DNA from: Craspedostauros australis
Lineage: Eukaryota
Direction: 5' to 3'
NCBI GenBank assembly: GCA_030167865.1
Contig: JALAGF010002898.1
Span: 1 to 41,858, forward strand
Length of the DNA: 41,858 nucleotides
The notes under the pieces were generated by a model. It was not told the DNA's origin, searched no databases, and saw only the letters and a list, made by a program, of their open reading frames with translations. Shown piece by piece: positions 733 through 39,070 of this stretch. Within the stretch, counting starts at the first letter, position 1, and each line of letters starts with the position of its first letter. The position numbers and the translations under genes were made by a program.

Positions 733-1755
733 TCACTGAGTTATTTATTTATTTTGCATACCAAAGAAATAGCCATTGTGCTCCATGACATTATATAATA
801 TAATTATGTGTTGTGTGGTATTCGCAAGTGTTGCTGTTGCAGCTGACGCGCAGGGGTGCCACTACCAACACTGTGCTGCTTTGCACAACACGCCCGAAGG
901 AGGAAACACGCAACCGAGCCAAATCGTCGACAACGTGAGGAATCAACGCGACACCGAATTTGCCACAACATCACCATCCACACCATTGAATACAATCGTG
1001 GTCTGACATCGACCGTCGTTGACGTCAGCATTTTCGTCCACGCTGAAGACAAGTCAGCCAGGTANTTGTGTCGTAGAAGCTAGCTAATTAAATATGGCCC
1101 TAATGGACAACACGCCACATCGTTTGCCAAAAAAGTCATGTTGTCCGATAAAAAATCGGCAGGATACTACCTTTTTGTCCTGAATGGGGTCGTAGGGCGA
1201 TGCTCCTTGTGATGTTACGTTACGAGCGCACGCAAACAATAAGCCACCTCAAGAACGACTCCGCTCCAGGATACGGGTCGAACACTCGGCGACTGGCGGA
1301 TGCATGCCATCAGACCGCAGAGTCGTCATTGGAGCATGGACAAGCCGGCACCACCGAAATTGAATCGTGATGTGTGTCGTTCGATGGAGTTGACGCTCCG
1401 TGGGATTCGAAACAGACAAAAAGTTTCCGCCACCTGCGTTTCGGCATCAGAGGGAGGTACTCTACTCGATAGGAGAGTGCGGTGTCGTCCTCGTATTGGT
1501 ATTACTCTCAATCTCTATTTACAAATGGGTGGATGATTGATGATGAGCCTGCGAAGCACGACAAGTATCAGGAAACATGGCGAGTGGAGGCGCTGACCTT
1601 CGGACATTGCGCAGACTGTTGTCCTGGCTTGGTTAAACGGATGAGTGATTGATTGATCGGTCGGTGGCGCCAGCACTGCAACGAGGACGAGACCGCGTAG
1701 ATGCTGGGGGGCAACGACGTTTTCGAACTCCTCTCTGTTCTACGTTGTGCTCCCC

Positions 1756-1773
1756 CTCTCTCTCTCTCTCTCT
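1756..1773. repeat. (CT)9 microsatellite abutting the trypsin stop codon
   Basis: Read directly from the sequence. Confidence 0.9.
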
Positions 1774-4557
1774 TTAGCAATCTTTGCCAAGGCAGAACCG
1801 GGTGCCCTCCCGTATTGATTTCTTGAGTTTTGGTCCGCCGCTGGCCAATAATCTGTCAGGACCGGTGTCGGAGAGTTCGTACATGTTGTAGAAGCCTGCG
1901 AGGATGGTTCGGTGTCGATCATATTATATTAGAGCAGATGGAAAGAGGGGTGGCGAGAGGCAGAGATGTTGATCCATTGACAAGAAAAGCAAAACGAATG
2001 GCATGTGAAGGAGTACGCAAGTGTGAGATGGATCGTTGCATGCATCGCACAGGAACAGCAGCAGCATCATGAGAGCAGATCTGATGTGTTGGTTGCCTGC
2101 TTCTTCGTTCGTACCTTGTAGCCCCACAGTCAGACCATCACCGTACTCGTCGAGGAAGACGAATTTGTAGTTGCCAGGCAGCAGTTCGACGTATTCTGAG
2201 AGGAAAGTTTTCGCTTCGGACGGTGGGACCGTGCCCACTTTCTTCTCGACTACGACGTTGTTGGACCCATCTCGGATGACCCAGCCAGTATCCTCCGGGT
2301 ACTCATCGTGCAACACGTCAATGCGCAAGCGATGCAGCACCACAACTTCTTCCGGTGGATCCTCCGTTGTTTCCGTAGTGGTGGAATTCTCCTCTTCTGC
2401 TGTTGCGTTCGTTGTGTTTGATGTATCTGTAGTGTTTGATGTATCTGTAGTGTTGAAAGTGTCTGTGGTGTTGAAAGTGTCTGTGACGTTGGTCGTATCT
2501 GTCACATTGACGACTTCGGTGACATTGGATAGCACATCTGTGGTGTTCGTGGTGTTCGTTTGAGTTGTGTTATCAAGTCGTTCCTTCAGCACCTCTTCCG
2601 GTTCATTGCATGATAGTGGTGGGTTGTCGGATAGAGCGCAGATTTGGTCCTGGATCCATGAATAGTAGGTGCTCACACGTGCGTACACACCAGGATATGC
2701 AGCACGGGCACAACCGACTCCCTGTGGTCGAAGAGTTGAATGATGTTGGGAAGGGGGACGTGACAGGACGAATGGATTGTTGTGATGAAATCATGGTGTG
2801 AGATGTGAGGTGATTTGACTTGATTTGATGCGATCTAATCCTATCAGATGCCGGCCAATGGCATCTTCCTTCTCAAGCGTATCCATCGAAGCGATGGATA
2901 CCCCATTGCATTGCCTTTTCATCGCCTTCGCAATGCCTGTATGGTACTTACCCATGACACGACACCAACTTGAAAGGTGCCGATTCTCGTGTCTCGCAGC
3001 ATCGGGCCACCGGAATCACCCTTGCAGCTATCGACACCGTCATCGGAAGCGCAGATCATCGTGGTGCCGTTGTAGTAGCCGCCGTAGATATCGCTGCATT
3101 CCTTCCTCGTGTAGTATTTCACTTCAGCCTCTTGCAGGATTTTGGATTTCTTCCCCCTTTCGCTGGTTCGGCCAAAGCCTGCAATTGTGAGGGCGTCATC
3201 TTTCTGCAAGGTGATGCTCCCATCATCTAAATCCGCAAGTTCCTTTTCGTACTGTGAGTGTTTGGGTGGGAATGGAGTGAGTGTGAGAGATGCAGACAGA
3301 CAAAAGCGAGACAGTGTTTGTGAGAAAGTTTGCAAGAGAGTGTGGAGGAGGAGGAGGAACTCTGTCACATGCGATTGACTTGCTTTGGTGCTGCGTATTG
3401 CGCTCCGCAAGTGAAGTTCTCATTACATGCATGGCAGCGGTTGAACCGCCACCATGATCACACAGCACGTACCCATCCTCCCAACTTCAAGACCATGACG
3501 TCGTTGTTCCGCTGAGCGCGGTCGTATTCCTCATGCGGGATCATCTTCGTGACTTTGGAATACATGGAGCCGGAGACGCTTGAGGTCTTATCAAAGGCTC
3601 CCACCAACGCGTTGCCACGCCCGTTCGTTTTGTAGCTGCAAGATGACGACAGAATGAATGGATGAATTGGTTAGTTGGTTGGTTGGCTGTGCGAGTAATG
3701 GCAGAAGAAGCGGAAGGCTCCTTATTGCGCACGTGATGACAACGCCAACATCTCACCAGCAACCGTCTGCGTTTGTTGAGACTTACCACTGTGCATGAAG
3801 TGTGCATTGAGTGCCCCAGATGTGGAGTTTGGCGAGTGAAGACAATCACAAGTCGAGAACAAAAGGAACGAGTTTGGTAGAGGGAGTGAGAAACAGAAAT
3901 CCCACCAAATCCACCCACGTGAGCGATAGCAGCATGTTGTCGCATGGCGTCCAGATAATCATCTAACACATCAGCACCTCCGCGATGATTCCTACACAAC
4001 GCTCGATGTACTTACGTGTGCCGATGTGAGGGCGATGTCATTATAAATCAGAGTCGCACCGCATCCGCCCCAGTCCACTGCGATGCCGGGTGCAGGGACG
4101 AGAAAAACGGTGCCGTGCATGGCCGGTCAGTGTCAACAGTGTGCATTGTGTACATATAATAAGAGAAAGATGGTGTGAGGTAGGAATGATTCTGGAAAGC
4201 GCCACATCGGACTCCGTTGTGTGATATTGTGTTGTATTGTATTGTGCTGTGCTGCATCCACCATCACATCACCAGTCAATCAGAGGACGTACCAAAGTAG
4301 GGATAATCTCCCTCCGTCGCATCTTCACCACCCACGATGAAGGCGATAACGCCATCGCCTTCTTCGCTATCAAGCTCTTCCTTTCCATCGGGCCCCGGCG
4401 TATCCGAGTCTGGATCGTTGAACCAGTCTTTGCTTTGCTTCACGAGTTTGCGATTCCTTTGACGCACACGAAGCTTCCGTGGGGTGCGTTGCGGTGCAGC
4501 AGCAGCAACGGAGCTGAGGAGGAGCTGCAACGAGAGGACGGTGATCGGTAGTCTCAT
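1774..4557 (-). CDS. Secreted trypsin-like S1 serine protease with Thr/Asn-rich linker and C-terminal beta-rich domain (7 exons, 506 aa)
   Basis: Exons 4557-4293, 4077-4016, 3788-3787, 3635-3473, 3251-2952, 2721-2115, 1895-1774. All introns are GT-AG and the exons total 1521 nt in frame. Signal peptide MRLPITVLSLQLLLSSVAAA; activation site IVGG; CGATLI...TSAHC (His); NNDVMVLKL (Asp); DSCKGDSGGP (Ser, with S1 Asp); VSWGVGCARAAYPGVYARVS. Confidence 0.93.
2414..2521 (-). repeat. About 6 x 18-bp coding tandem repeat (NTTDTS/NTTDTF/NVTDTT) in the trypsin linker
   Basis: Units such as gtgtttgatgtatctgta and gtgttgaaagtgtctgtg; each encodes an N-x-T sequon. Confidence 0.85.
3787..3788 (-). other. 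Predicted 2-nt micro-exon (TG) of the trypsin gene
   Basis: The minus strand reads ...cttcatgcacAG|TG|GTAAGT...; it restores the frame and the conserved Cys of TSAHC. Confidence 0.85.
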
Positions 4558-5323
4558 GATGCTTTGTCTTCGTTTGTGGATTGCTTTTTATGAGGATTGT
4601 CACGGACAAATCGGAAGAAGCGACACATGGCATCAATCGCTCGCTCTGTCGCTGTGTCTCTCTGTGGTTGATGGTGTTGACGACGACGACCAAATGTTGC
4701 CGATGGGCGTTCCTGTTTGGAAAGAAGGTTTCATGTGCCGATCATTGTTGTTTGGATGTTGTTCAGCCGGCTCGTGCATGACGACACGATCATCACATAA
4801 CACAAAACATGTGCTTTCGAGTCATACACCGAGCCATCGTGTTCCGAATTATGGCATTCACGATCGGCTGCCCAACTAAAAATCCAGAAACGCGAAAGTG
4901 AGAAACCACCAACATCGCTGCGAGCAACGCAGATCGAACCAGTCCACATGTTTGTGGTGAATCAAGCCACAGAGGTGTAGATCGTACTATTCCAGACATC
5001 TTACGAGTACAACATGTACAATAGATACGATGCAACTGTCCATCACTATTCTACTATATTCTACTCTTACACTCGTACAACACTCCAATGCAGTTGATGT
5101 GCACAACGTATTACCATACAGGACAAGTGTGTCGAGTTGAGTGGAGTAGATCAGGACAACAATCCCACCATGATCATGTTGAATGTGGTCCCTATACCCA
5201 CTTTGGGAATCTATACGGATGGTACATGATGCGATTGAGTCAAGGTTGGTGATCACATGGCCATAGCAGATCCACATCTATCTAATCACTACATATTATA
5301 GAATACATGGTATACAGTTTCAT

Positions 5324-6934: not shown

Positions 6935-7637
6935 GTCAGCTCCGTGTTGGTATGTATGGTGCTACTGGAGGAGGCACTTGTCCGTACGAGTATGGTGCCA
7001 GCTTCAGCAGAGTACAATCGTGGAGTATCGTACAGTATCGTGGAGGACTCTGATACGCCCGTTGGTGCAAACAGAATGCAATCCAACATAGTCATGCATG
7101 AGCCGCCATCGTCAGGTTATTTTCTTCTTCTTCTGACACCGATCGCAATGGCGAATTCGTCACGGTTCTTTCCTTCCTTCTCCTTCTTTGGCATGTGTTG
7201 TCTTCTTTTTTTGAATTGTGTGCGCACAGAGACCTCGTGCGTTGTGACAATAGAGTTCGTGCCGCATATTTCAAACTTGATTCCGTCCACAATGACGACG
7301 GGACATGCTTGTGACTTGCCAGCGAATCCGAAACACGGACAAACCTGCGCATACAACGCGAGGGAAGCGAAAAACGACAAAGTAACGGGTTTCCGTTCCG
7401 CACTTTGCATTTGGCCTCGTTGTGGACACGGGGCGTGACACAATTCGTGGTAGAGAAGCACAGAGTGGTGCAGAGAGAGTGTGGAGAAGAGGAGCGTGGG
7501 CTGTTTTTTGTGCTATTATCAAAGACATCAACAGAACGCACTATTTTTGGCGGACGCCAACGGTGCCACAGAGACTCCCATGACAACAGCGGTCTTGGAG
7601 AGGCTGTTGGAGGAGGTCGATCCAAGAAGGTCACACG

Positions 7638-9488
7638 ATGCCGAATGCCGTTGAGTTGACGTCTGAGAACACCAACGAATTTGAGGCCACCATCAGCCCC
7701 ACCACAAGCTCGGACTCGAAGGATGCCACTGACAGCAGTATCGACAGCAGTAGTATCAGCAGCAGCATCAACAGCAGTAGTAGCATGGAGACAGCACCCA
7801 ATCCATCAGCAGACACTCAAGTGAAGACACCTACGACTACTGATACTCGTACAACCACTCGCACCACTACTCGCACCATGACAGCGGCAAAGGAAGGAGG
7901 AGACCCCATGCGAGGCAGACTGACTCCAGACAAGCCCCAGCGCATCGTGATGAGCAGAGCCTTGACGGATGACGAGAGCTTGCCCAGCATCAAGGGCGTC
8001 ATGACTGAAGACAGCATAGAAAGCGTTCCTTTCGATCAGACAGAGGATCAGCACGGAGAGCAGGATCAGGACGAAGCCTCCCATGCGCAGGACGAGGAGG
8101 ACAAGTTCGTGGCTGCGTCCTGCTCCTTGGTGGGCGAGGTCCTGGTCGATTCCCCCACCAACCACAGCCGCACCGTCCCCAGGTCCTCCGGCATCTCCAG
8201 CTTCTCCAACTTCTCCCCAAAGCACTCGGAAGAGAAGCACCTGCCGTCCTTTCCATCCATCTCTGCATCTGAGGCGGCCAAACGGGCGGATTCGCCACCA
8301 ACGACTTCACCATCAACTCACGCATCCAATTCAGCAACGCCAGCATCACCGACATCACCAACAAACACCCAGCAGAACCCATCATCGCCAACTCAGGCAA
8401 CGCTGCTCACCAGTCCGTCGAGGTCATCAGCGTCCACATCAATGCCAGCATCGACTCGGACGTCCACATCCAATTCAGCAACGGCGTCCAAGTCGACATC
8501 CAGCTCCGTCACATCGATGGGCATCATGGCAGCGAGCTTCGCGTGGATACAGCGACAGCGAAACGGAAGGAGACGGCAGTATCTGCAGGCGGAGGCAGAG
8601 CGTCAGCTCAAGAAGATAGCGGAGGCGGAAAAGAAGGAGAGGCAGGCGTCGTCTTCCTCGTCGTCCTTTCTCGACGAAAACTCGACCTTTCGACAGATGG
8701 CCAGTGCCAGCAACGGCGTTGGTGCTGGCGGTGGTGTTGCTGGTGTCACCAGCACCACGAGATCCTCGTTGTCGGCCATGTCGCAGGATGCGGAGGACAA
8801 TGATGACGGCGTGCGAGTCGCCGATGCTCCCAGCGTCTCCAAATCTGGCGAAGGCGCGTCGGGACACATCGACATCACCAGCCTGCAGGTCGAGGACGAA
8901 TTGTCCTTGACGCCCAGAGTCAGGGTGGAGGAAGAGGAAGCTGATGCTCCCTCGCTCATCCTCAACGACGACCAGATGCATCAGGTGGCCATCCACGTGC
9001 TGCCGTCCACGGTCTCCTACTGCAAATGGAAGCGCCTGTACAGCCTCACGAGGGACGGCGATTCATTCGACGCCTTCCTCCGCATCATGAACGAAGTCCA
9101 GCGCTCGCTGCTGGTCGTGCGCACATCGCGCAACGAGGTCTTCGGCGGATACGCCGGATCGCCGTGGAAGGCGCACAACCAAAAGAACACGCAGTACTAC
9201 GGATCCGCCGAATCCTGCCTCTTCAAGGCTTTCCGGGACAGCGACAAAATACGCGTCCACAAATGGTCCGGCGCCAACCGCTACATCCAGATCTGTGACA
9301 CGTCGCACAAGATGATCGCCTTTGGCGGCGGTGGAGAGGACGGTTCCTTCGGACTCTGCATCGAGGATGATTTTCAGGTCGGCAGCACGGGTCCGTGCGA
9401 TACCTTCAACAACCAACCCCTCTGCGATCAGGAGAACTTCACCATTGTCGAATTCGAGGTCTTTGGATTTCTCACCGGCGTTTTCTAA
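7638..9488 (+). CDS. TLDc-domain protein (OXR1/NCOA7-like) with a long Ser/Thr-rich disordered N-terminus, 616 aa
   Basis: C-terminal KWKRLYSLTRDGDSF...EVFGGY...YYGSAESCLF...KWSGANRY...FGGG...FGLCIEDDF..GST.PCDTFNNQPL...EFEVFG matches the TLDc fold. Confidence 0.92.
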   Translation: MPNAVELTSENTNEFEATISPTTSSDSKDATDSSIDSSSISSSINSSSSMETAPNPSADTQVKTPTTTDTRTTTRTTTRTMTAAKEGGDPMRGRLTPDKPQRIVMSRALTDDESLPSIKGVMTEDSIESVPFDQTEDQHGEQDQDEASHAQDEEDKFVAASCSLVGEVLVDSPTNHSRTVPRSSGISSFSNFSPKHSEEKHLPSFPSISASEAAKRADSPPTTSPSTHASNSATPASPTSPTNTQQNPSSPTQATLLTSPSRSSASTSMPASTRTSTSNSATASKSTSSSVTSMGIMAASFAWIQRQRNGRRRQYLQAEAERQLKKIAEAEKKERQASSSSSSFLDENSTFRQMASASNGVGAGGGVAGVTSTTRSSLSAMSQDAEDNDDGVRVADAPSVSKSGEGASGHIDITSLQVEDELSLTPRVRVEEEEADAPSLILNDDQMHQVAIHVLPSTVSYCKWKRLYSLTRDGDSFDAFLRIMNEVQRSLLVVRTSRNEVFGGYAGSPWKAHNQKNTQYYGSAESCLFKAFRDSDKIRVHKWSGANRYIQICDTSHKMIAFGGGGEDGSFGLCIEDDFQVGSTGPCDTFNNQPLCDQENFTIVEFEVFGFLTGVF

Positions 9489-9611
9489 CATAAAGCGAGT
9501 CACGAGTACCTAGTTTAGTCATGAGTTGGTGAACACCTCATTCGTTTCGTTTTGTGACGTTGTTTTCGTTGGCACAACATCCTCGTCATCATAATTTTGG
9601 AATCGACCACA

Positions 9612-11905
9612 ATGTGGATCCCAACGCCAACGATGTTGCTGTCGATCAGCTGCGTCCTCGCTCTGCTTCCAGCGGCGCACGCCTTCACGACGCCGCTTCC
9701 CCACGTGCGCTCGACGGCCTTGTCGGCAACCGCCGATGTCGTCCTCTTCGGTGTCGGCGATTTGCGCGTCGACGACCACGAAGGACTGCGCCGAGCCTCG
9801 CAGAATGCCAACGTCCTGCCCCTCGTCGTGCTCGACGACCGGACGCTGCGCAACATTCCGGGCATGCGCGCCCATCCCATCGAAACGACGCGCATGCTGT
9901 ATCATGCCGTCGAAAGTCTGCGTGACGCGTTGAAGCAGCAGCATGATTTGGAATTGCAGGTCATCACGCAGGCCGAGGCGTTGGCGGATATCGAGGGATC
10001 TCTGCATGTCTGCGATTTGGGTCCGGCCGACAACGCGATGGGGTATGGCGCCTACAGCGATCTCGTATCATCGCGATTGGATGTCGTGCCGTGGTCGTGT
10101 CGTCTGCGCGACGCGCCGTGGAACGCCGTCGGGGCGTTGCCCGCAATGTATCCGGAGTATGCAAAGACGTTCGCGCAGGAGCTCAACGCGCCGGTCGAGG
10201 TGTCGTCCGTGACGTCCAACCTGGAGCTCGAGGCTGGTGCGCCGCTCGATTTGGAGCAGTTCACAAAGCGCGTGCAATCGTTGCTGCAGCTCGATGACGA
10301 GCAATGCGAGGCCCAAACCAACACGGGATTGTACGGCACACATTGGGGTGGCATGGACGCCTCCAGTATCCGCGAAAGCACCGTCCATCGGTTCCTCGAG
10401 ACCTACGTCGATGTTTGCGATCAGCAGGATGCCGCATTTGCCAAGTACCTTCCCACCATTCAAACCAATCCCAACAGTTTGGAGCATGCCACGATGAAGT
10501 GGAACATGGATTTCCAGCCCGACAACGTCAACAACCTCCTGGAGGGCGAGCTTCTGATTCGATACCTGGCCGCTCCGCTGCTCTTTGGCACCATCTCACC
10601 ACGGCGCATCGCCAAGTCGATTGAGGCCAACAAGGATCGGTTCTTCACCAATCCCATCCACACCTTCTTGGAAGGGCAGGAATGGCATCGATTGTTCGCG
10701 GCCCAATGCATGAAGGAGACAGCTGAGAGCACGGCATCGCAGGACCTCCAGTACAAGTACACGCGATGGCATGGATTTCTTTGTCGGTACGCCATGACGA
10801 CACCCACGGAAGACGACGACGATGCCATCCTCTTTGTGCATGGATTCGGCGCATCTGGCACGCAATGGGCCAAGACCATTGAAGAATTGCGAAGCGACAA
10901 CGACGACATCACGTGCTACGCCCCCGACTTGTTGGGTTTCGGACACAGCGAAAAGCCAGCCATCACGTACTCGGGATACACGTGGGAATGTCAGATTGGA
11001 GATTTCCTGCAGGAGTTGGTTGTCAACAGCAATGTCGTCATCGGCGGCAACTCCATCGGCGGATTCACGGCCATGTGCGCCGGTGCCAACGATGCCACAG
11101 TCACGTCGAACACGCTCAGTGCATCGGGTGGACCCGGCACGGGCCAATGCTCAGGTGTGATCCTCATGAATCCGGCCGGCATCATTCAAGACCAGGCCGA
11201 AGCGGCTGCGACGCAAGTCACGACGGCGGAGAAGACGATTGCCGGTCAGTTGGATCCGTTGCGGTACGTACACGTGGTCTTGTGCGTCATATATCTTGCG
11301 TTGCTCAATGTTCTTTGATACTATTGGTATGATGATCTCCCAACATTTTCTCACTCGCTGCCTCCCAACACTTACTCATTCACCTATTCACTCACTCACC
11401 AATTCATCATGCTCTCCACAGCCCACCGCCATTGGCAAGACTGTTGGGCAACGCCATCTTGGCCTACTTGCGCCCACGCATCCAATCCATCTGCGTCAAT
11501 CTGTATCCCACCAATCCTGCGGCCGTCGATACGGTCTTGTGCCAAAACATCCTGAGAGATTCGCTGGATCCCGGTGCCATCAATGTCATGATTTCGGGCA
11601 CCAAGTTGCCACCGTCGCGTCCGTACAATGAGCTGCTGATGCAACGCAGCGAGGGGCCTTTGCAGTCGACGTTTGAGGGGCCGGTGCTGATGCCGCAAGG
11701 CGTGTTGGATCCTTTGAATGACGCCAAGGCACGGTGCGAAGATCTGGGCAAGCTTCGAGCTGGCATCACGATTGACCCGTTGCAGGCGGGACACTGTCCG
11801 CATGATGAAGTGCCGTCGCTGGTTGCCGAATCGATTGCAAAGTGGATGGCGACGACCAAGCAGGAACGCACGGAGTTCTTGCGAGCAAAGGAATTGGTGG
11901 CGTAA
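9612..11905 (+). CDS. Plastid-targeted photolyase-like N-domain + alpha/beta hydrolase (pheophytinase-like) fusion, 2 exons, 711 aa
   Basis: Exons 9612-11263 and 11422-11905 (intron CG|GTACGT...CCACAG|C). Signal peptide + AHA-FTTP. Photolyase-like motifs GDLRVDDHEGL and LAAPLLFGTISPR. Hydrolase motifs HGFG, APDLLGFGHSEKP, GNSIGG (Ser), GVLDP (Asp), AGHCPHDE (His). Confidence 0.88.
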
Positions 11906-19100: not shown

Positions 19101-22100
19101 CAAAGTGGGTGAGCAAAAGTGATCCGCAAGACAGTTGAGTTCGTCGTTGGATATCCAGTTGGAGAGCATTCGTAAGATGGCGAATCATGTTGTCAAAACT
19201 AGCAAGGCCGGCGCAACAGCTGCAAACATCGCGGTGATTTCCTTCCACACACTTACGATAGAAAGGATGCTCCAGCTCGTCATTATGATTGGTTTCATAT
19301 CCCGCCTGCCGAGCGCAAGTAATGTGAAACACCCATGGCATTCGCTTGTTGCCCCATGCTCGGCAGTCGTCGGCAGTGCACTTGAGTTTCAGCCCATTGG
19401 TCATGCCGCACAGACCACACCTCCGTTGCGAGAGGACGTGTCCTCTGCCATTCGACATGATGACGTTAGCACAGTCCACCTTCCCCGTCCTTTGGTCGAC
19501 GATTAGATCTCGATGCCAACTGCACGCAGAGACGTGACACGACGCAATGCAGGCGGACGCAAAAGCAAAACAAATAAACATGAGTGCGAGGTAATCGCAA
19601 CAACGGCAACGAAAGCGATGGAAAACGACGGAAAAAATTGACAAGAGTGAGATGAATGGCGAGCAAGAGCAACGATGGGGATCTCCGACATGTTCAATTG
19701 CACACGATAAATCAATAGCATCTCGCTGAGCCACACTACGTAGGATATCCATACGCACAGGCATCGCACACACGCTGACCGATCCAACTTACTACGCGCA
19801 TGCGGCGTGACACCACAGATCTTGTGCGAAGAGAGTCCTTTTGAATTCATTGTGAGCCTTCTTCCAGTAGTTTTGTCGGTTGACGGGCTTGGCGAATGCT
19901 TCCAGCAACCAGCCACCGGCTTGAAGGCAGATATTACATTTGGGTGTGACAAACTTTTTGCCCTTCCCGTCGCTTTTCTGTTTGCCTGCTTTGCCCTCCT
20001 TTTTGTCGTAAGCGGTGATTCTGTCCTTACTTGCTTTCCGTTCGCCCAATTTCTTGTCGACGTATTGGCATTTGACGCACACGATGCTGCGCTCAAATTC
20101 TTCGGTCTGCGGCAGCATGCAGGCAACGCAGCTCACGGCGTGACAACGCACGCACCGGCTAAGGCCTCGTCCGTCCTCTTCCACCTCATCGCAAACCTCG
20201 CAACGCATGCCTGCCAGTCGACGAGTAAGGATATCTTTGTAGAATGTTTTCTCGTAGTCCCGATTGGCGAGATATTGTCGGCGTTCCTTTCCATTGAGTT
20301 TGTTGAACTGCTTTGGGGGCAGTGGCAGTGGGGCCGGCTTGGGTTCTGGAGGGAATTGCTGCGAGGCCTTGATCAGATCTTCGATGGGAACGGGATCTCG
20401 TTTGCGTGTCTCCGGGTCGACGTTGGAATGCTCAGGGCAAAGGAGAGTCCAGGGATTGTCGGCGACCGGGCCTTCGTAGTTCTCGCCGTGGATCACCTCG
20501 CAAACCCCGGACAGTCGAGCACACGTGACGTGGCAGTAATTCTTGCATCCTTCGAAGCGGCACTTCTGATACGCCCCTCTCTGCCCCTTGCAGATGAAAC
20601 AGCGAACGTTCAGGCGCATGAAGTACACCTTGAGGTCCGCAACGTCCTCCACGATGTCTGGATTCCCAGATTCGATGAAGTTGAGGCCTTGCCACTTGGC
20701 GCAAACGTTGTGAACCCACTTCGTGATCACCGTCCCGTCGTTGGCCTTGATCTTTTTCTTCGTGTCGGTGCGAATGAAGGCGCCCTGCTTGATTGGACAC
20801 AGCTCACAGCAGATCGGGAGCGGCGGGGGCGTTATCTTCGTCGGTGGCAGGATGTTGAGCTTCGTCTTCCGCGCGATGAGCTGCGACATCTTCTCCCGTT
20901 TGAAGTGCTTGCATGCCACGCAGTAGTAATCACCTTCGGGGATCTTTTCCACGCCGTAGCAGAACTGGTGCACCGGGACGTTGCATGCCTCGCAGAAGAG
21001 AATCTGATTGTCGGGAGTCACCTCGCCGTCATCACAGATCATGCAAACCGCGTCCATGTCTTGCTCTAGCTGCTTCTGCCATGCGATGTCCATCTCCTTG
21101 CGACGTTCGATAATTCGCTGGTTTTCCATCAGCAACCGCTTTTCGCGCGCCCGTCGCTGGGTCGCCTCGGGACCTTCGAAATCTTGTCGAAGCTGAATTG
21201 CCTGAGCGAAGAGCTTGCGCGTCGTTGGCTCCAACCCGTCTTCGAGCTCCTTCAGCATTTTTTGCTTTTCGAGCAATGTCTCGAGGAGATCGTCAACGTC
21301 GCTACCATCCGTCGTTGCTGGTGCTGCCGGAGGGTCGGAGGCTTCTATTTGCGGAAAGACCTTGAAAATATCGAGGTCTAAATGCCCCTTCTTGGATGGA
21401 GGCAAGATAAATGACTCACCCTCCTGACCATCAGGGGCAAGCAGGGAGAACTTTGGTATATCATCCTCCTCGTTGCCAACAGTAGCACGTATCGCAGCAG
21501 TGGCGGTGCGTTGATTTCCAACTGGGGCACTTGCGAAGTTGTTGTCTTTCTTGCGCGTGAGCAGGTGCTTGTTCCGCGAAGATGATTTCAATTTCAAACC
21601 GAAGTACTTGCCAACAGTGTCCACGTTTGGGAATCGCGCAATGACGCGGTCGTGCCTCTGGATCTCGGCGTCGTCCTCCTGCCTCTCATGCTCGACACCA
21701 GTATCTTTGCCATTCTTGGCGTCCTCGCTGCCCTCGATATCATCGTTTCCGTTGGTCCGGTCGCCACCATCGACGGTTTTGGTGATTGGAGTGCTCACAT
21801 GCTTGCACATTTGGAATGTGTAGCGGGAGCTGCATTTCTTTAGATCGCAAATGAGAGGAACGTCTGCCTGTTCATGGAGGCACGGTAGCTTTGACATGCG
21901 AAAGTGCTTTTGCAACATCTCCTGCTTGTCTCGAGGGGCTTCAATCATGGCGTACCATACATCGTTGGCACGCGTATGCTCCAAGGCCAGGGTTATCATC
22001 ACAAGCAATACTGAGTCGTTGACCGTGATCTCCAAGTGCTGCGATTCCAGCCGGGGCCGTTCGATTGCGATGGAAGTCGTTGTATCAGTTGGTTGCGCAT

Positions 22101-25100
22101 CAGCCGGTTGCTTGTCAGTCTTGTCACCTGTCGCGGTCGTAGTTGTTTCACCATTCGCAGCGATTGCATATGTTGATTTTGCGCCTGTGTTTGTGTCTTT
22201 GTTGGGGAGGACGTCTTCTGTAGATGGTGGCAATGTGGCGGGGTTTGTGGCTGTCGCACCATCGTCCTTCTTATGCTCATGCTCCGCGCTCGATTTCACC
22301 GCATCCATTTTCGGTTCTTCGTTGGTTACACGCAGCGCGGTGGCAGGCTCCACTTCCATCGCGGATTGTGGTCTCACCACCTCCTCGTCCTCGTCCTCCT
22401 CTTCGACCTGCTCGACGAAGATCACATCTTGCACCATCGAACCAACGATCTGCGACGTTTCCTCCATTGTGCATTCCAAGTATTTTATAGTTTTCAGTGT
22501 CCCTGGAGATTTGGGACTGTTGGCAGACTTATCGTGGCGTGCTTCCGATTTGACAGGAGTCGCTATTCGGAGCTTGTCGTCAACGGCTGTCGTCGTTGCT
22601 GGTATCGTTGCTGCGGCTGTTGCTGTTGTTGCCGACGGTGTTGCTGGCGTTGCCGTTGCGGATGGTTTAGCATCCAATTCCGAGGAACTCGGCAGACTCT
22701 GGGTTTTTGACGGAAGGAGGGAAGTTGCGGAAAGGTCCACGGCCACATCGTCAAGGGTGGAGTCCTTGTCGTCGTTGTCGTCTGTGAACGGTGTGTCCAT
22801 ATCGTCCAACTCCATGACGTCCTCGTGCGACATGGCGTCGTCGCAGGGCGATGCTGGTGTGGGAACCTCGCCTCTACCAATGGCATCGACGTAGGGCTTC
22901 CAGATGCGTTTGCGGTTGTTGACGAACCAATTCCGTAATCTGCTGCTGCCGATGCCTGTGTCCTTCATGATGCGAGCCTTCTCCTCAGGGCTGGGGTATG
23001 GTTCATCGATGTGTTCTGGCGACAGCATCCATGCCTTGAGATAGTCCACCGTCGATTGTGGCAGCCAACTCTTTTTGCGCGAGGGAGAAACCCGTGCTCC
23101 TTTGGTGGTCGATGATGACGACCGTCTTTTGCCAATGGAGTTGGAAGTTGTTGAGGTAGCGGCGCCGCGTGTGAGCCCAGTTCGCCTCGGTGGTTCTTCC
23201 TCGATCTCATACTTGGTGGACGAGCTCGATCGAAGACCTCTACCCGCTTCCGTCGCTTCTGCCGCCGCTGGTGATGATGTAGGTGTTTGTGTCGCGGCCG
23301 GCGATTTGGACGTCTGCATCTGCGACCGCTGCGCAATGGGAGGCGATCCATCAAAGATTTGAGTTCTGTGCGTCACGGGCCGATCTGTGGGATATGCCAC
23401 ACCGTTGATCAGCATCACGAGTTCGGATTCCACTTGTCCCAGCAAGTCCGGTTGCATCTGAGCCCAAAGAAACGAGTAGGTGAGCATGGCAGCCGGTTGC
23501 TTCGTCTTGGCATCCAATGCCACCACGCCGAATGTGAAGGATGGGAGGTTCGAGAAGACGCGGTTGTTTCCGATGGTCCAGTGCGTTCGTTGTTTGCCTG
23601 CTTTGGAAGCGAATGAGTTCCAATCCACGAAGTCGACATGCTCCAGATCGCTCTTGTTTCGCACGCACTCCTTGGCTTTGCTGACTATGGTGCGCCACAT
23701 CCCGCTTCGAGTCTGCTGGGCCAGCAGCTTGTTGAATTGAGTCATTTGCGCCGAGATGGGCGATTTCATGGTGGAACGGTCGAATCCGTTGGCGAGGAAA
23801 TGGCGGTACACGGGGTCCAGCCTATCGAGCATCGTCTGGTCGTCTTCATCGCCGAGCGGACTGACCTTGATCCGGTTCAACCTGCGCTTGCCTGGTGCCG
23901 GAAGATGCTGGGCTGGGTCCGGCAAGGAATTGCGGATCATGGGCACCGTGTTGGCGTCGATGGTGGTGGGGAAGACGGGGGGTCTGGACTTTGGGCTAGG
24001 AATAGGTATGTCGAAGCCAAGGAGACGACCGAGGAACGATATAGGATACGTGTCGGGTTCGTAGAAAATAATCTGCGTCGGGGCAAGCAGTTCGGGACCC
24101 ATGACGGGTTGATCGTTGCGTGTCGGTGGTTCCACGCCAGGCACAAGCGCCTCGAGGAGTGGATTGACAAGCCGTTGCGGGAATTCATCAGCAATGTGCA
24201 GTGGAGGGCCGGATGATCGAGGAGGCGCCTTGCGACTTGATGCGCCGTGCGCACCCTTGCGCCGACCTCTCCCTCTGGATGGCACTTCCACCCGCTGTCG
24301 TTTTTTGTAGTTGGTCTTTGATTTGCGCGATGCGGCCACTCCGGTTGCTTTTGTGGATTTATTGGTGATTCGCCTGGACTTGGTTTGCGTTGGTGGCGCC
24401 TTTGCGGAAACTGGTGTCGTCATGGTCAAGGCGTCGACATGCAGCGGTGTGGAGAAAGTGGTCGAGGAGAAGGTAGACGAGGCCGGCGTGCCAATTCCTT
24501 TTCCTGCCGATCTCGTTGATGCTGGCGTTGGAGTCGATGTATACGTTGGCACGCCGGGAAATGGCGATGACGACTCTGCTGCGGTAGCCTTTCTCGATTT
24601 GGTTCTGTTGATTCTCGTCTTGGCTGATGTCTTGCGTGTCTTTCCAGCGCCTCTTCCCTTACCTGCCCCTCGACCTCTGCCAGGAACCCTGCGCTGACTG
24701 CTCGGAGCCTTCCTGCTGATGCCCGTCTTGGTTGGGGTGGACTCGTATATGGTGGCAAACGCCAGCGGGTTGTCTTGTGCAGCAGCGTTCGTGGAAGGTT
24801 CTGGCGCATGCTGTGGCACAACCTTTGCCAATTTCTTGAGATCTTTCATTCCCATGGACGGCCGACCTTTGGTCTTCGCGCTGGAGGATCTGGTGCCATT
24901 GCTGATCGGAGTTGCGAAACCCAACGGATCCGATCGCGGTTGTTGCATCGCCGTCATGAGCTGCGACGTCGACGATGCGTTTTGGTTATAGGAAGAATCA
25001 TTCTGGAATCTCGAGATAGAACTCGACGACGGAGATGCGAACATGTTCACTTGCGAATAGCTGGAGGCCGACTGAGCACTTTGAATCATCGCCGATGACC

Positions 25101-25776
25101 CCTCGTTGCTGTGACCGGTCCAATTCTCGGCGTCAGCACCGGCTGCAGTTGCAGCAGTGGTACCACTACCACTGCCACTTCCACTACCACTTCCATTTGA
25201 TGCCCGACCAAAGGTGTTTTGAAACTTTCGTCCACGACGAAGCACCTTCGGGAAAAGATCGACGGCGGTCGCCTTGAGAGTATCGGAGTCTGCAAATGAC
25301 ACATCCATGCCACGAGCATTGACGCTCGTGCTGTTCGCGCTCGCCGCCAACGCAACAGGCACATCCGGTGGCAAGGCAACGCTGGTGGAAATGATCGCGA
25401 GGCCTCGATCTGCAATCAACGGGGTTGCTCCTTGCGCTGCTCGCGTGGATGTCCCCGTTCTGGGGGTCTGTCCCAACGCAGTGCCAAGATGAGCGATGAT
25501 ATTGTCGGACGCAGATGCGGCCACTGCAGAAGGCGCCAACGGCCTTGGGCTGAGAGCATCGTCCGGCAATCCGATGGGCGTTGGTTCCAGCACATCCATA
25601 TCCGCGACGAAAGGTGCTGCAACGTTGGTATCGGCATGGAAGCTCATGTCGCCGCCTTGGTTGGCGCGTCTGGTGCTGTTCGTGGCCTCAGCCGATCCCT
25701 GAAGAGACCTCGCGCGATCCTCCCCAGGCCTGTGCGTCTTTGCAGTGACCTGATTGCCCATTTCTCCTTCTGCCAT
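16147..25776 (-). CDS. Very large chromatin protein: TALE/KN homeodomain + two PHD-Zn knuckle-PHD (PZP-like) modules, 3 exons, about 3042 aa
   Basis: Exons 25776-19793, 19519-19257 and 19028-16147 (both donors GTAAGT; 9129 nt in frame). Homeodomain LKAW...PYPSPEEK...LRNWFVNNRKRIWKP at 22894-23079. BRPF/JADE-type PHD CMICDDGE...NQILFCEACNVPVHQFCYGV..IPEGDYYCVAC plus ePHD at 20428-21054. A second PHD/ePHD spans both introns. The start codon is uncertain. Confidence 0.85.
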
Positions 25777-25882
25777 CTCAGTTGCTTGTGGAGTGAGTTC
25801 ACGTGTGTTTGGCGCAGTGATGATATGATGCCTGCGCTGCTCTCCCACCAAGCAACGACAGGCACAGTTGGAGTGGCGCAAT

Positions 25883-25959
25883 GATGCAACGGGTGATGCA
25901 ATGGGTAATGCAACGAGTGATGCAATGGGTGATGCGATGAGTGATGCGATGAGTGATGC
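25883..25959. repeat. About 6.4 x 12-bp minisatellite (GATGCAATGGGT/GATGCGATGAGT) upstream of the PZP gene ATG
   Basis: Tandem units read directly; a looser GATGTCAATGAT repeat follows at ~26125-26190. Confidence 0.85.
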
Positions 25960-27948
25960 CCTGTGACTTGATCTCGGACGCGGCTTCTGCTGTTGCTCTG
26001 TTCTGATGATGCTGCACTGCTGTTCTCGCGTGGATGGTGTGGTTTGCACGCGCTTCACTGTAGCGCAAAGTCAGCTTCGGAGTGGAATGGGTGATGCTTG
26101 CAACACAGCTCAGCACGCAGATCTTGATGTCAATGATTGTGATGATGTCAATGATTATGATGGAGTCAATGATGAAGTCAATGATGTTGATGGGACTATC
26201 CCCCTTCTTGGTCGGTTGGTGTGGATCCACTGTTTTGGGGGGTTTGGAGGATGCTGCACTGCGTTGGGCACATCTCACCGTTCTCCGTTGTCGCTTCACC
26301 GCAAATCGCGAAGATTGGGCTCACCCAATTTTTTTCGTGGCTCTTTCTCCATCTCTCTTTTGGGCCTGTATGTCATAGTTATGTCTCAAATCATATCGCA
26401 TGCGACAAATAGGATTCCTCACAGGTGGACAGATGTGTGGACAATCTGGGACGTTGGAGTCGATTGAATCATCGATTCACCATCCACATTTTCGATGTTC
26501 CCTTTCTTGCCTTGGCAGTCGTGTTTTTCGTACTGTGGCTGGTCCATGTCGGTTTCGCGCCCAGCAAACTGCCAGAAACGGCCAGAGGCCGCCATCACCA
26601 AACCGATTTCTGGCTCGTCCAAAGCCCACGATCGATCGGCCCTCCTCCCTCACCGCCCTGGGCCATTCCAAAGACCATGTCCATGCAACCATCCCGATTC
26701 CTTCACCACTCGCCGTACCACATGCAACGGATGTTACACCACCTCGCCATTTTTGCGTTTGGCTTCATTTTATGTCAGTTTTGCATCGCGAACGTACTTA
26801 TCTCGACAACGCGCCCACCTTTTTCCAAACTAACTGCGCCCTTCGTTTCTCCACTTGTCGCCGCAGGTATGTGCATCATGCGGGCCTCTGAGATGCATGG
26901 CAAGCCAACTTTCCACATTCGGCCATGGTTGCACGCATCGTGCTGGGGATTTTGTGTTTGTGTGAGATGGAGGCAACAAAACGCAGACGAAAGGAGAAGG
27001 TGTCGCAAACTCGCAGAAGCAAACAATGCGCACTTGTCGCGGGCTTCGATTCCTCGGATTGAGGCATTGGTCCGACCGTCGTCAGGTTGCGGAGGTTTTC
27101 TTGTAGCCTAACTTCGTGTCTAGACAAACTTCTGTCGTTGTGTGTTGCTCCATCATTTAACTGATTTAATGTGTATCCTTGGTCATGTCGGCAAGGGTGC
27201 AGTTCCGCCACCCTGTCTGATGGTATGTTGGTCACATTGGGTGTAGGAGGCCTTCCAGACGATCTTCTTTCGATAGATGCAACACCTTGTGCTCGGGGAG
27301 GTGTCTGGAAGAGGGCACCGTGCATGTGCGGATGCGGTTCTGCGATTTTGATCCAAAAACTCTCCTGGAGGGGGAGGCGCAGAACGATGCTCGAGGGATG
27401 TAGTGAAGATGGCGATGAGGGAGGCATGCTCTAGAGTTGGCAGTCCTACTTTCGTCTGCTCCGATTGATTCGGTGGGAAGGTGTTGTGGTTTGATCCTTC
27501 TAGCGTTGCTCGCGGTGCTACGGATGATGTTGATGATAGCAATGGCAGAAAGTGATGCAGCGAGCAGACAGCGTTTCTCGCTGGGTGCCTTCTGATGGCC
27601 CTCTTCGTTCTGATTCCGAATTGCCAGCTGCGGCCTTGGGGGAGTGCCCCTAGAGTGGAGGTCGCGTGACAGTCTAGAGCCCATCGGATCTCTCCTGCCT
27701 ATCGTTCGTGGAGAAGGCTTCTGTACTGTTGTCGTTGTTCAGGCGCGCATTGTTCAATACTATTCTAGTACATCATGATGGAGTACACACTGCCCACCAT
27801 CGCATCCATCGAGCACAAGAGGAGGACATATCTGCTCCATGTTGACAGCGACAGCGCTGGATGCAGTCATACGTGGAGCATTCGTCGAGTAGGATGAAAG
27901 AGTTCATTCTTTAGTCGTAGTCTGTCCATGCAAAGGACTGTTGCTCCC

Positions 27949-28006: not shown

Positions 28007-30205
28007 TCATCGTCTGGCGTTGCAGATGAACTCGCGTGGGAGATGGGATAGTTCCAGACTGTCGTTGATACCTTTCGTTGCAAATGGTCGCCTCGGCGGA
28101 GTCCGTTCATTGCCACCGCCACCATCGCCAGCACCACCATCACGGCCGCCGCTGTTGCTGCCGCGCAAGATGTCCATCCAGTCTTCATCCGATAGCATGG
28201 ACCTCTTCATTTGCTGCAGTACGATTTCGTTGACGAGGCCTCTCGAAGAGCACAGGGAGAACACCTCTTTCAGGTTCTGTGTCTGCTTGGGCTGCCGCAC
28301 CAACCGCCGCGTCGCTTTGCAAAAATGGGCGAACGTCGTCGACGTGGGTTCCAGCGTGCGCGCTCGGGGCTGCCTTGGCCTTGACTTTCCATCATTCCTC
28401 TTCGTGCGGTTCATCCTCGGCGTCTGCTTCGAGCCACCGCTGCGATGATCGTTGCCTCCGTCGCGCATCGTCGTGCGGAAGGCTTCCACCGCGATCTCGT
28501 ACGACTTTCGTTTCAGCTCCTCGTCGCCGAAGGCGTTGGCGCACGCCATGAGCAGCGAGTTGTAGGAGATGATGTCGGGATGGCATTCGGCACGCGGGTG
28601 CTGCTTCATCTCGCATAGCACGTGGTACGCGCGCAGGGCCTTGTCCGCGCGAGGGCTGCGGGCGTAGGCATTGAGGAGGGCGTTCCAGTGGAAGTTGGTC
28701 GGCTTCAGCTCGATGCGTCCGTCCGCGTGCTGTTCTTCCAGCTCGATCAGCAGAGAGTGGGCGGTCCCGCAGGCATCCCATTTGCCAGATTTGGCCAGCG
28801 CCGTGATGACGGAGGTGTAGGTTTGAGAGTTGGGCCCCATGCCGTCATCCTCCAAGGCTTTCATCTGCTCCAGCAGCTTCATCGCTTCGTCGGCCGCGCC
28901 GGGGTTGTCGGCGCCAGATATCTTGGCCCATCCATCGATGACGCACGAGAATGCGATCGTGTCTGGCTTCATCTGCACGTTGCCGTCCTCGTATGCCTGC
29001 ATGAGATCGTTCAAGATTTTTTGCGCGCGCTGCGGCTGACCTGCCTTGGCCAACGAGGACATGATGGCCGTGTAGGTGAAACGATTCGGCTCGATTTGCG
29101 GATCATCGCGACGCAGCCGTTCGAAGATCGCGCGCGCCTTGTAGGGCTTGCCGCACTTGGCCCATCCCTGGATGACCGAGTTGTAGGTGTAGATGTCCGG
29201 CTGCACGCCGTGATTGCCAGCCTCATTGATCACCACCATGTGCTCTAACAGATCCTGCGCACGCTGCGCTGCCTGTCCTGCATTCGGTCCTTGCACCTGC
29301 TGCACCCATGCGTAAATCACTGTGTTGAACGACGTGGTGTCCACCATGACGTTCGACTTGAGAGGATCCATCATGTGTCGCAGCAGCTTCTCCGCCTTCA
29401 ATGCCATGCCCTTGTCACGAGACTGGGCATACGAATACAGCACGGCGTTGTACGTGACGACATCCGGCTGCAGCAGACCTCCCTTCTCCTCCATCTGATG
29501 CAGCAGCTGGACGCAATGGCGATGGTCGCCTTGTCGGGCGTACGAGATCATGACGGTGTTGAAGGAGATGACGTCGGCCTGGGCGGCGCTGTGGCTGTCG
29601 AGCATGCCCTGCAGCAGCTCGTAGGCCTTGTCGGGATTGTCATCCTCCTTCCATGCCTTGAGCACGGTGTTGTAGGAGACGGTGTCCGGCGACACATCGT
29701 AGTACCCCTCCTGATGCAGTGCTCGGATGCGCTGCAGCATCTCCTGCGCACGAGGAGCTGCGCCTTGCTGCGCCAGCGAATCCAGATTCAGATTCAGCGA
29801 TATCAGCGGGTTGTTTCCCTGTTCCAGGCTCTGCTGTCGGCGTTCGTTCGCGTCGACGCGTGGGTTGCCGTTGCCAACTGCGCAGAGTCGCGTCCTCAGC
29901 GGCTGGCGATTGCGCCAAACTGCCGAGTTGGAGGATGCCACATTGTGATTGCTACTGTTACTGCTGTTTCTGTTGCTGTTGGTATTGCCGTTGTGATTGG
30001 CTGACGACATTCGTTGCTCTCTGCATCCACCCTCTACCATGATCATCTTCACGCTCGTGCCTGTGGGTCCTTTGAAATGTGCGAGGCTTCGTTGGCAGCT
30101 GCCATGATGGGCAAACGATTCCACCGAGACTGAGAACAGGCACAACGACGCGATTGCGAAGCATGGGGCGAATGTCACGAAGAACGCCTTTGTGGGACGG
30201 CCCAT
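28007..30205 (-). CDS. Plastid-targeted pentatricopeptide repeat (PPR) protein, 732 aa
   Basis: Signal peptide MGRPTKAFFVTFAPCFAIASLCLFSVSVES-FAH. About 10 repeats of type PD.vsYNtv..a.ak: PDTVSYNTVLKAW, ADVISFNTVMISY, PDVVTYNAVLYSY, PDIYTYNSVIQGW, PNRFTYTAIMSSL, PDIISYNSLLMAC. Confidence 0.92.
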   Translation of the reverse strand: MGRPTKAFFVTFAPCFAIASLCLFSVSVESFAHHGSCQRSLAHFKGPTGTSVKMIMVEGGCREQRMSSANHNGNTNSNRNSSNSSNHNVASSNSAVWRNRQPLRTRLCAVGNGNPRVDANERRQQSLEQGNNPLISLNLNLDSLAQQGAAPRAQEMLQRIRALHQEGYYDVSPDTVSYNTVLKAWKEDDNPDKAYELLQGMLDSHSAAQADVISFNTVMISYARQGDHRHCVQLLHQMEEKGGLLQPDVVTYNAVLYSYAQSRDKGMALKAEKLLRHMMDPLKSNVMVDTTSFNTVIYAWVQQVQGPNAGQAAQRAQDLLEHMVVINEAGNHGVQPDIYTYNSVIQGWAKCGKPYKARAIFERLRRDDPQIEPNRFTYTAIMSSLAKAGQPQRAQKILNDLMQAYEDGNVQMKPDTIAFSCVIDGWAKISGADNPGAADEAMKLLEQMKALEDDGMGPNSQTYTSVITALAKSGKWDACGTAHSLLIELEEQHADGRIELKPTNFHWNALLNAYARSPRADKALRAYHVLCEMKQHPRAECHPDIISYNSLLMACANAFGDEELKRKSYEIAVEAFRTTMRDGGNDHRSGGSKQTPRMNRTKRNDGKSRPRQPRARTLEPTSTTFAHFCKATRRLVRQPKQTQNLKEVFSLCSSRGLVNEIVLQQMKRSMLSDEDWMDILRGSNSGGRDGGAGDGGGGNERTPPRRPFATKGINDSLELSHLPREFICNARR

Positions 30206-30776
30206 CCTTGCGATCACACTGCACTGTGTCGGTGAGTGCGTACGTATAATATTATAGAATAGAATAATATAATAGAATATGGGTGAGTGCTTGCGTAATC
30301 GCAATCGAATGGCAGTCACAAGATTGTTGGCAGTGCCCCCGTTGCTGTCACAAGGATACCAGTGTTCGTGGGAAGGAACAGACACGCGATCTCCCGAAGT
30401 CGCCTATTTCCCGACATGGTTGTGAAACCACGACAAACAACAGATGGCAGACATGATCGAGACTTTGAACTTGGCACCTTTTTGGCGCCTTTTCATTGGA
30501 AACCCGGAGTCACGAGCGATGTCAGCATGTGAGACACGAATTGATTCGTGTGATTGGGGAGGTCGAATTCAATGGAATACTATGGTCGGTGTGGTGTAGG
30601 GAAACGGAGGAAGAGATTCGGGGCAGTTGCAACTCTGCGAGTTGTACTCGTAGAATATAATATAATACTTTGCAGGACGTGCACCTCCGCGTCTTCTAAT
30701 TCCGTGATACCAGAGACCTTCGCAGGGCACACCATCCTGGCCTGATCTACTCTGTTCTTCCCCTGATGCGCGTAGT

Positions 30777-37900: not shown

Positions 37901-38454
37901 CCATCTCCACCCCTCCCCATGCTGTTGCCGCGACTGCCGCCACCAGTACCATCGTTGTTAAATCGCTGATTTTGAGTGCGTTGGCTTGTCGCATCGGCCA
38001 AGGCCGACGCCGCCTTGGGGAGGTCTCTAAAAGCTTTAGGTAATGCCGATGCGACGGCCGCTGCTGCCGCTGTCACCGTTTGCTGTTGTGGTGGTCTCGC
38101 ACCCTTCTGCTGCTGATGCGCTGCCATCCGTTTCTCCAGAATCCGCTTCATGGCGTCATGGCCGCCACCACTTGTCGAGAAGGCGCGGCGGTGAACGTGG
38201 ATGCTGCTTCGAGAAGGAACATGCAGTCCATTCGAAGCATGGATGTTTGATCCAATCGCCACCCTTGGTTGTTCGCGCCCTCCAATGATTGGTGACTGCG
38301 CTGGCGAGGATGGCGACCATGGTGACTGCAATGACTGCAATGACAGCGATCGTGTTGATGAACAATGACGGCTCAGAGAAATCGCGTTCGGAGAGGCACC
38401 AAGCTGGGACCTTCCGGCCCTCACGGTATGTGCAGCGATGCAACGTCGAAGCAT
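34945..38454 (-). CDS. infB: Organellar (probably mitochondrial) translation initiation factor IF-2, 1169 aa
   Basis: [23 protein letters not shown] (G1), [17 protein letters not shown] (G3), NKID (G4), [31 protein letters not shown]. Arg-rich presequence [18 protein letters not shown] with no signal peptide. Confidence 0.95.
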
Positions 38455-39070
38455 CTTGGATCCTCCTTTCCTCCTTAGTCTATGCGTTGAACCACAAAGG
38501 TGGATGTAAGGTCAAAGCCAGTTCGGACGCCGAAGCATCGAAGCATTGCGGTTTGTGAGGAGCGTGATTTCGGCAGACAGCAAATGCGAAGTTGCATCGT
38601 GTTTGGGATTTGCGCTTTTTGTTGGTGTTGGTTGATGTGTGGTGAGATTCGCGAAAGTATTTACGTCACATTGTTACATCCGACTGATGCACGGTCAGAC
38701 AAATGAAATATCATTCTAAAGAATCTATGCGAGTGCGACTACAACGACCTAACCACGTCAGATGTGCAGACCAACGTTGTTGTCGCAGTTTTCCCGCGAT
38801 CTGTCGCACATCATCAAAACAACGTCACATCATGTCAACGGATCCGAAGAATCGGCATCAACACTGCTGACACCTCGGTGGATTTGCTCAGCAACACCAT
38901 CCACATCCACCGACTTTGCACTTCCGAATACGAGAGCATTGGAAGCATCGTTGTGTCTGTCAGAATCTATTGCACTCTGCACTCGCACTCACACTCACAC
39001 TCACACTCACACGGATCCGCAAAAAGAAGTATAATATTATAATATATTATACCAATAGATAGACAACATC

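Follow-up and report, generated by a model that had tools for sequence, protein, structure and literature searches.

How does a gene keep its reading frame across a gap whose two canonical exon borders, if joined directly, would break it? The question is raised by a gene that appears to encode a secreted trypsin-like S1A serine protease in the diatom Craspedostauros australis (assembly GCA_030167865.1), lying on the minus strand of contig JALAGF010002898.1, the whole 41,858 nucleotides (nt) of which were analysed and are here called the window. The exon that carries the catalytic His codon ends on that codon in phase 0 (ACA TCG GCA CAC, last base 4016, then GTAAGT), and the next large exon starts in phase 2, opening with C TAC AAA ACG at 3635 after TTGCAG. 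A first-pass annotation of the window, made from the sequence, had described both borders, which we also read on the minus strand, and had proposed that an exon of two nucleotides, TG, lies in the 380-nt gap between them, enclosed by an acceptor and a donor only 2 nt apart. The acceptor and donor are present at 3790-3781, and an assembled transcript contig reads CAC-T-G-CTAC across the gap, which is the junction predicted beforehand. We put at roughly 0.9 the probability that the third exon of the gene is the TG at 3788-3787, flanked by a canonical acceptor and a consensus donor.

The gene (4557-1774, minus strand) was modelled by joining seven exons by coordinate, the dinucleotide exon 3 among them. 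Its features are as follows (a slash marks an exon border).

4293-4557, minus strand: exon 1, 265 nt, with the ATG at 4557-4555 and the donor TTG/GTACGT; RNA contig joint 4077 to 4293.
4078-4292, minus strand: intron 1, 215 nt, GT..AG, skipped exactly by an RNA contig.
4016-4077, minus strand: exon 2, 62 nt, encoding ...CGATLIYNDIALTSAH, with a phase-0 end on the catalytic His codon CAC and the donor CAC/GTAAGT.
3789-4015, minus strand: intron 2, 227 nt, GTAAGT...CACAG, upstream of the micro-exon; RNA contig depth zero.
3787-3788, minus strand: exon 3, the probable micro-exon TG, 2 nt, bases 1-2 of the Cys codon TGC, whose base 3 comes from exon 4.
3636-3786, minus strand: intron 3, 151 nt, GTAAGT...TTGCAG; RNA depth zero.
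3473-3635, minus strand: exon 4, 163 nt, with a phase-2 start, encoding (C)YKTNGRG...NNDVMVLKLGGW; covered by an RNA contig.
2952-3251, minus strand: exon 5, 300 nt, containing DSCKGDSGGP within the second (C-terminal) half of the protease domain; RNA joints 3251 to 3473 and 2720 to 2951.
2115-2721, minus strand: exon 6, 607 nt, encoding the last part of the protease domain, then a linker of Asn/Thr-rich repeats, then a C-terminal domain; covered by an RNA contig.
1774-1895, minus strand: exon 7, 122 nt, with the stop TAA at 1776-1774; RNA joint 1894 to 2114.

With TG included, the modelled coding sequence (CDS) is 1521 nt long and in frame, its sole stop is terminal, and its product has 506 amino acids (aa); the open 1521-nt frame and the division of the gap into introns of 227 and 151 nt, both given in the first-pass annotation, are thus reproduced by the model. 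Compared with the minus strand and with the introns of this gene, the statements of that annotation about the sequence all proved correct. The six introns measure, in order, 215, 227, 151, 221, 230 and 219 nt, the two that flank the micro-exon (227 and 151 nt) comparing with 215-230 nt in the gene's other four, and all six begin with GTAAGT or GTACG and end with CAG. At 3790-3781 the minus strand reads AG/TG/GTAAGT, preceded by CTTCATGCAC, with CACAG/ as the acceptor; in intron 3 a CTAAC motif, branch-point-like as a pattern match only, lies 36 nt upstream of the acceptor.

Evidence from RNA consists of the assembled contigs of one public run (X1), placed on positions 1700-4700. The RNA label of X1, the single run found to hold part of the sequence, is a guess, and the run is treated as RNA on the strength of its spliced contigs: X1 carries 0.54 of the sampled words of 1774-4620, close to the exon share of 1521/2847 nt (0.53), as expected if its contigs are spliced RNA. 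Six contigs fit the trypsin gene, each with at least 99% likeness and without other letters, and they skip 1895-2113 (219 nt), 2721-2950 (230 nt), 3252-3472 (221 nt) and 4078-4292 (215 nt), which correspond to predicted introns 6, 5, 4 and 1 with GT..AG ends. Contig depth is zero within introns 1 to 5, and this, together with the exact skipping of introns, argues that the contigs derive from spliced RNA and not from contaminating DNA. Over about 2 kb they otherwise match the window with no differences.

The junction in question is carried by one of these contigs (record 4; 372 nt, depth 6.64), which consists of exon 1, exon 2 (4077-4016, spanned without differing letters), one unplaced letter, 3636-3473, and 3251-3150. 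The unplaced letter is A on the plus strand and hence T in the mRNA, and it was left unplaced because on the plus strand it fits neither flank, that is, neither 3637 nor 4015; an A in the mRNA sense would have matched 3637 and been absorbed by the alignment. The G of the micro-exon was put by the aligner onto the acceptor's own G (3636). Read through, the mRNA across the gap is CAC-T-G-CTAC, or His-Cys-Tyr, which is 2 nt longer than the direct join and 3 nt shorter than CAC-TGCAG-CTAC, and its T is supplied by neither flanking exon. Two junctions that the first-pass annotation had named as contrary outcomes, CAC-CTAC and CAC-TGC-AGC-TAC, are both absent from the contig. Only the form that includes TG was assembled, and no skipped form occurs among the X1 contigs, although contigs cannot show rare forms; from two other runs of the same study that come from another organism (X2 and X3), no contig was placed on the trypsin gene. 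That the two bases come from the TG at 3788-3787 is indicated by the canonical splice signals on either side of it, not by the RNA.

What the two bases would restore is a residue that is present in every homolog aligned. Exon 5 matches the Pfam family PF00089 (Trypsin) with an E value of 3.2e-18 (66.8 bits, cut-off 20.6) and trypsins of the Protein Data Bank (PDB) with an E value of 6e-14, and exon 1 encodes a signal-peptide-like N-terminus followed by the start of the protease domain (IVGG...YPYF). When the modelled protein was aligned with 17 homologs, its TSAHC fell on their (T/S)AAHC, with Cys directly after His and no insertion in 17/17; the nearest homolog (P0255, 46% identity over the domain) reads AAHCY. 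Its NNDVMVLKL aligns to the homologs' ND-x-x-L motif, and GDSGGP (G78 D79 S80 G81 G82 P83) is invariant in 13 sequences. We take the His of AHC, the Asp of ND-x-x-L (exon 4, the Asp102 equivalent) and the Ser of GDSGGP (exon 5, the Ser195 equivalent) to be the catalytic triad, and trypsin-like specificity is presumably predicted by the Asp that precedes the Ser by six residues in DSCKGDSGGP (the Asp189 equivalent). The Cys after His57 is presumably not a catalytic residue and would pair with Cys42 (the C of GGCGATL) in a disulfide. The earlier statement that TG builds the active-site His-Cys of the enzyme consequently holds in part: the exon contributes two bases of the Cys codon, whereas the His codon is contained entirely within exon 2, and the Cys presumably has no catalytic role. 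The conservation of that Cys, also claimed from the start, is borne out by the alignment, and inclusion of TG restores both the frame and the Cys common to all 17 homologs.

How readily might such a site arise by chance? The pattern AG/TG/GY has one site in the 380-nt gap and AG/T/GY has none there, and the micro-exon site is the only AG-N(1-3)-GTAAGT on both strands of the 41.9-kb window, in which GTAAGT itself occurs seven times. When the gap was shuffled 20000 times with its dinucleotide composition preserved, AGTGGT was found in 1676 shuffles, AGTGGTRAG in 18, and the full 10-mer AGTGGTAAGT in 3. The bare hexamer AGTGGT is therefore unremarkable; what is remarkable is the TG dinucleotide set against a consensus donor. 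Allowing at most one mismatch, 0.88 occurrences of the 10-mer are expected across the window; the sole one present is the micro-exon site itself, which matches exactly. A looser motif, AG-N(1-3)-GT[AG][AC]G[TA], has 30 matches in the window and is uninformative without RNA.

In the splicing route that we propose, the spliceosome would remove two introns of ordinary size, 227 and 151 nt, from either side of TG, and the resulting mRNA, CAC TGC TAC, would have its frame restored and the Cys after the catalytic His supplied. No other reading of the gap relies on canonical signals throughout. With only 2 nt between them, the acceptor and the donor could hardly be occupied together, so the two introns are most likely removed sequentially, by intron definition: the first removal would attach TG to a neighbouring exon, and the second would complete the join. 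Were intron 3 to leave first, the product CACAG/TGCTAC would provide the acceptor context for intron 2; were intron 2 to leave first, the product CACTG/GTAAGT would present a regenerated donor. We infer that inclusion of TG is constitutive. By computation, skipping of TG leads to a stop at codon 124, as expected from the frame break that had been claimed for the direct join, and retention of intron 2 or intron 3 leads to stops at codons 117 and 111, respectively, so that failure to include TG would destroy the protein.

A related arrangement is known from recursive splicing, in which ratchet points act as zero-length exons at AG/GTAAGT and serve very long introns. The diatom site resembles them in having an acceptor close to a consensus GTAAGT donor inside an apparently long intron, and in the stepwise removal proposed for it. 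A ratchet point, however, leaves no base in the mRNA, whereas the diatom site keeps two and has introns of only 227 and 151 nt. A recursive splice site in the strict sense was rejected, as two bases lie between AG and GT and both are retained in the mRNA.

Several observations weigh against a TG exon at 3788-3787. The junction occurs on a single contig of limited depth that comes from one run in one study, and the RNA cannot tell which TG of the gap is used; neither lariats nor splicing intermediates appear among the contigs. Ahead of TG, the pyrimidine tract of the acceptor is weaker (54%) than in four of the five other introns (68-75%), intron 6 likewise having 54%. Comparison with other genes lends no help either: no ortholog or close relative was found, the best aligned homolog being 46% identical, and in the two metagenomic loci in which the matter can be judged (L036 and L063, about 32% identity) the His-Cys codons are contiguous, with no intron there. 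At such an identity, all that these two loci show is that the micro-exon is not an ancient feature of the family.

Among the other accounts of the junction, the one that we regard as merely unlikely accepts the micro-exon as real and makes it alternative, with regulated skipping or intron detention leading to mRNA decay and turning the protease off. The stops at codons 124, 117 and 111 that skipping or retention yields are what such a switch would use, and the introns flanking plant microexons tend to be detained (PMC8831610). Its difficulty is that only the included form was assembled and that the flanking introns have a depth of zero, a weak objection given that contigs drop rare variants; nor does the sequence hint at a regulator.

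We consider it very improbable that the gap is a single 380-nt intron, the window lacking two bases (TG) at an exon border through an assembly error or a strain difference and the internal AG/TG/GTAAGT being coincidental. A 2-bp error at a border is conceivable, and counts as a further point against the TG exon, the window being a draft that contains an N and the run search having listed no DNA run of the organism. The contigs, however, are otherwise identical to the window over about 2 kb, and in the assembly each border is canonical already (CAC/GTAAGT and TTGCAG/C). At 380 nt, a single intron would have 1.65 times the length of the longest among the gene's other four, and the internal site would demand a coincidence of about 1 in 1000, as estimated from the 18 of 20000 gap shuffles that contain AGTGGTRAG.

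An extra T that is untemplated, whether an artefact of RNA-contig assembly, a product of RNA editing or insertion, or a stray base added to a CA/G acceptor, is in our view extremely improbable. The occurrence of the junction on one contig only speaks for it, but a chance base would need to be exactly the one that re-establishes the frame together with the Cys codon of 17/17 homologs, and to match as well a dinucleotide lying between perfect splice signals, and a depth of 6.64 implies several reads. Finally, a single intron whose acceptor lies 5 nt upstream of 3635 and lacks AG, giving CAC-TGC-AGC-TAC (His-Cys-Ser-Tyr) in an open 1524-nt CDS that is in frame and keeps the Cys, has next to no chance of being correct, as its acceptor would be a non-canonical CT and its joint would run from 3640 to 4016 without letters, whereas the contig runs from 3636 to 4016 with one unplaced letter; for the assembled transcript, record 4 refutes it.

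The TG exon thus has to be placed among the exons of one to a few nucleotides that are already described. In Arabidopsis, APC11 has a constitutive 1-nt exon for which splicing by intron definition with sequential removal has been proposed (Guo & Liu 2015, PMC4674806). Like the diatom exon, it is an ultra-short exon between a canonical AG and GT that keeps the frame, and it was missed by annotation; unlike the diatom exon, it measures 1 nt, comes from a land plant and has been validated with reverse-transcription PCR and reporter constructs (PMC4674806). It is also conserved across land plants (PMC8831610), whereas for the diatom exon we have no ortholog and one transcript contig. Another 1-nt exon has been published for plant VPS55, and read counts at plant microexons indicate that the two neighbouring introns leave one after the other, with the downstream intron more often the first to go (PMC8831610). 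Strong GTRAGT donors are described at 1-nt exons in the same source (PMC8831610), and both donors around the diatom TG exon are GTAAGT.

In fungi, a genome-wide long-read survey of Coprinopsis cinerea reported 57 exons of 2 nt in 50 genes and 13 of 1 nt (PMC12230235). The diatom case shares with these the 2-nt size, the short introns and the premature stops that follow omission, but it concerns a single diatom gene. The CYP621A P450 genes of Fusarium have a 1-nt exon in the PKG motif that is common to 20 orthologous genes (PMC12940212). That exon, too, falls within a strongly conserved motif of an enzyme, was first suspected from an intron of roughly double the normal length and was confirmed with public RNA reads (PMC12940212); it differs in being the middle base of a Gly codon, whereas the diatom exon forms bases 1-2 of a Cys codon. 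The same paper cites Volfovsky 2003 for exons of 2-5 bp in Arabidopsis, Drosophila and humans (PMC12940212). The neuronal microexons of animals, at 3-27 nt (PMC8378409), are likewise very short and hard for the splicing machinery, but for the most part their lengths are divisible by three, their use is alternative, and dedicated factors control them via exon-proximal enhancers, whereas the diatom exon has 2 nt and skipping of TG breaks the frame.

Full-text literature searches found no relevant paper on micro-exons of diatoms or stramenopiles, and the algal microexon literature comprised green-lineage and dinoflagellate work, with none on diatoms among the matches listed. Since plants and fungi are already known to have exons of 1-2 nt, what is new here is the diatom host lineage and this particular gene; such exons are apparently unreported in diatoms. 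The micro-exon reveals no new mechanism. Its main use lies in annotation, and beyond that it offers an entry point to the way in which the diatom spliceosome handles exons of near-zero length. A gene finder or spliced aligner unable to place a 2-nt exon would give the protease a shifted frame or cut it short at the catalytic His, and the case argues for micro-exon-aware annotation of diatom genomes. With it, stramenopiles join the evidence that organisms with short introns splice exons too small for exonic signals. A larger conjecture, which we rate as improbable, would be that diatom spliceosomes handle exons of 1-3 nt routinely, that annotations miss the frame-restoring class of them, and that in this gene the weak acceptor makes inclusion conditional, so as to form a protease switch coupled to mRNA decay.

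The search for relatives behind these comparisons ran from the window outwards. Within the window, local tblastn found no paralog of the modelled protein. With exon 5 as the query, a word-index search returned 3 weak matches (40-43%); an exhaustive search gave 8392 matches, none above about 51% over exon 5. A first metagenome scan returned 380 pattern matches, of which 0 were confirmed, and a second kept 80 loci of 35-50% identity, most of which encode the domain in one frame and hence represent bacteria or transcripts. L036 and L063 are the only loci of the 80 in which the domain match is split by an intron yet covers the His-Cys region; among the partial-match loci, including the animal-like L071 and L049, no intron at His-Cys was present in any examined. 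In both L036 (3282-3347) and L063 (1871-1997), an intron falls on the position of intron 5 of the trypsin gene (after VSW) or a few codons past it, that of L036 measuring about 65 nt compared with 230 nt for intron 5. The cluster of one trypsin relative includes a Leptocylindrus danicus sequence.

As to the origin of the introns, blastn of the six found no similarity among themselves or to the window beyond chance-level matches of at most 29 nt, and thus no trace was seen of an introner or duplication origin. Intron 6 shows a behaviour of its own: one contig (record 2; 1868-2143, depth 37.5) is unspliced through it (1896-2114, minus strand), and another contig splices it (joint depth 21.1). 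Since introns 1-5 have a depth of zero, this read-through is not DNA contamination. Retention of intron 6 gives a predicted isoform of 529 aa whose last 63 residues include the hydrophobic stretches LMMLLLFLC and MPFVLLFLSM, a composition that might make it a membrane-anchored form beside the secreted one.

Downstream of the protease domain, the linker in exon 6 (2400-2560, minus strand) consists of Asn/Thr-rich near-repeats (…NVTDTFNTTDTFNTTDTSNTTDTSNTTN…) with many N-x-T sequons, and at the DNA level of repeats of about 21 nt. The C-terminal domain that follows (2115-2340 and 1774-1895, minus strand; …DEYPEDTGWVIRD…LDEYGDGL…) matched no Pfam family; the tail of one trypsin relative (P0194) shows two occurrences of its motif pattern, and to judge from this recurrence the domain may be a recurrent module without a family name. 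A search of positions 1700-4700 against Rfam gave no match at an E value of 0.1 or better. Directly after the trypsin stop codon lies a (GA)n run (1745-1773, minus strand), and the lone N of the assembly stands at window position 1065, about 700 nt downstream of the gene.

Elsewhere in the window are a TLDc protein (7584-9485), a photolyase-like/alpha-beta hydrolase frame (9558-11315), a pentatricopeptide repeat (PPR) protein (28010-30403), and two frames on the minus strand: an open frame of 2092 aa with a KN homeobox and PHD fingers (19795-26070) and an eIF5B-like GTPase (34948-38511). A diatom source of the window is supported by the best named relatives of the eIF5B-like open reading frame, which, at about 65% identity, are those of the pennate diatoms Nitzschia inconspicua, Nitzschia sp. 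Nitz4, Cylindrotheca and Seminavis.

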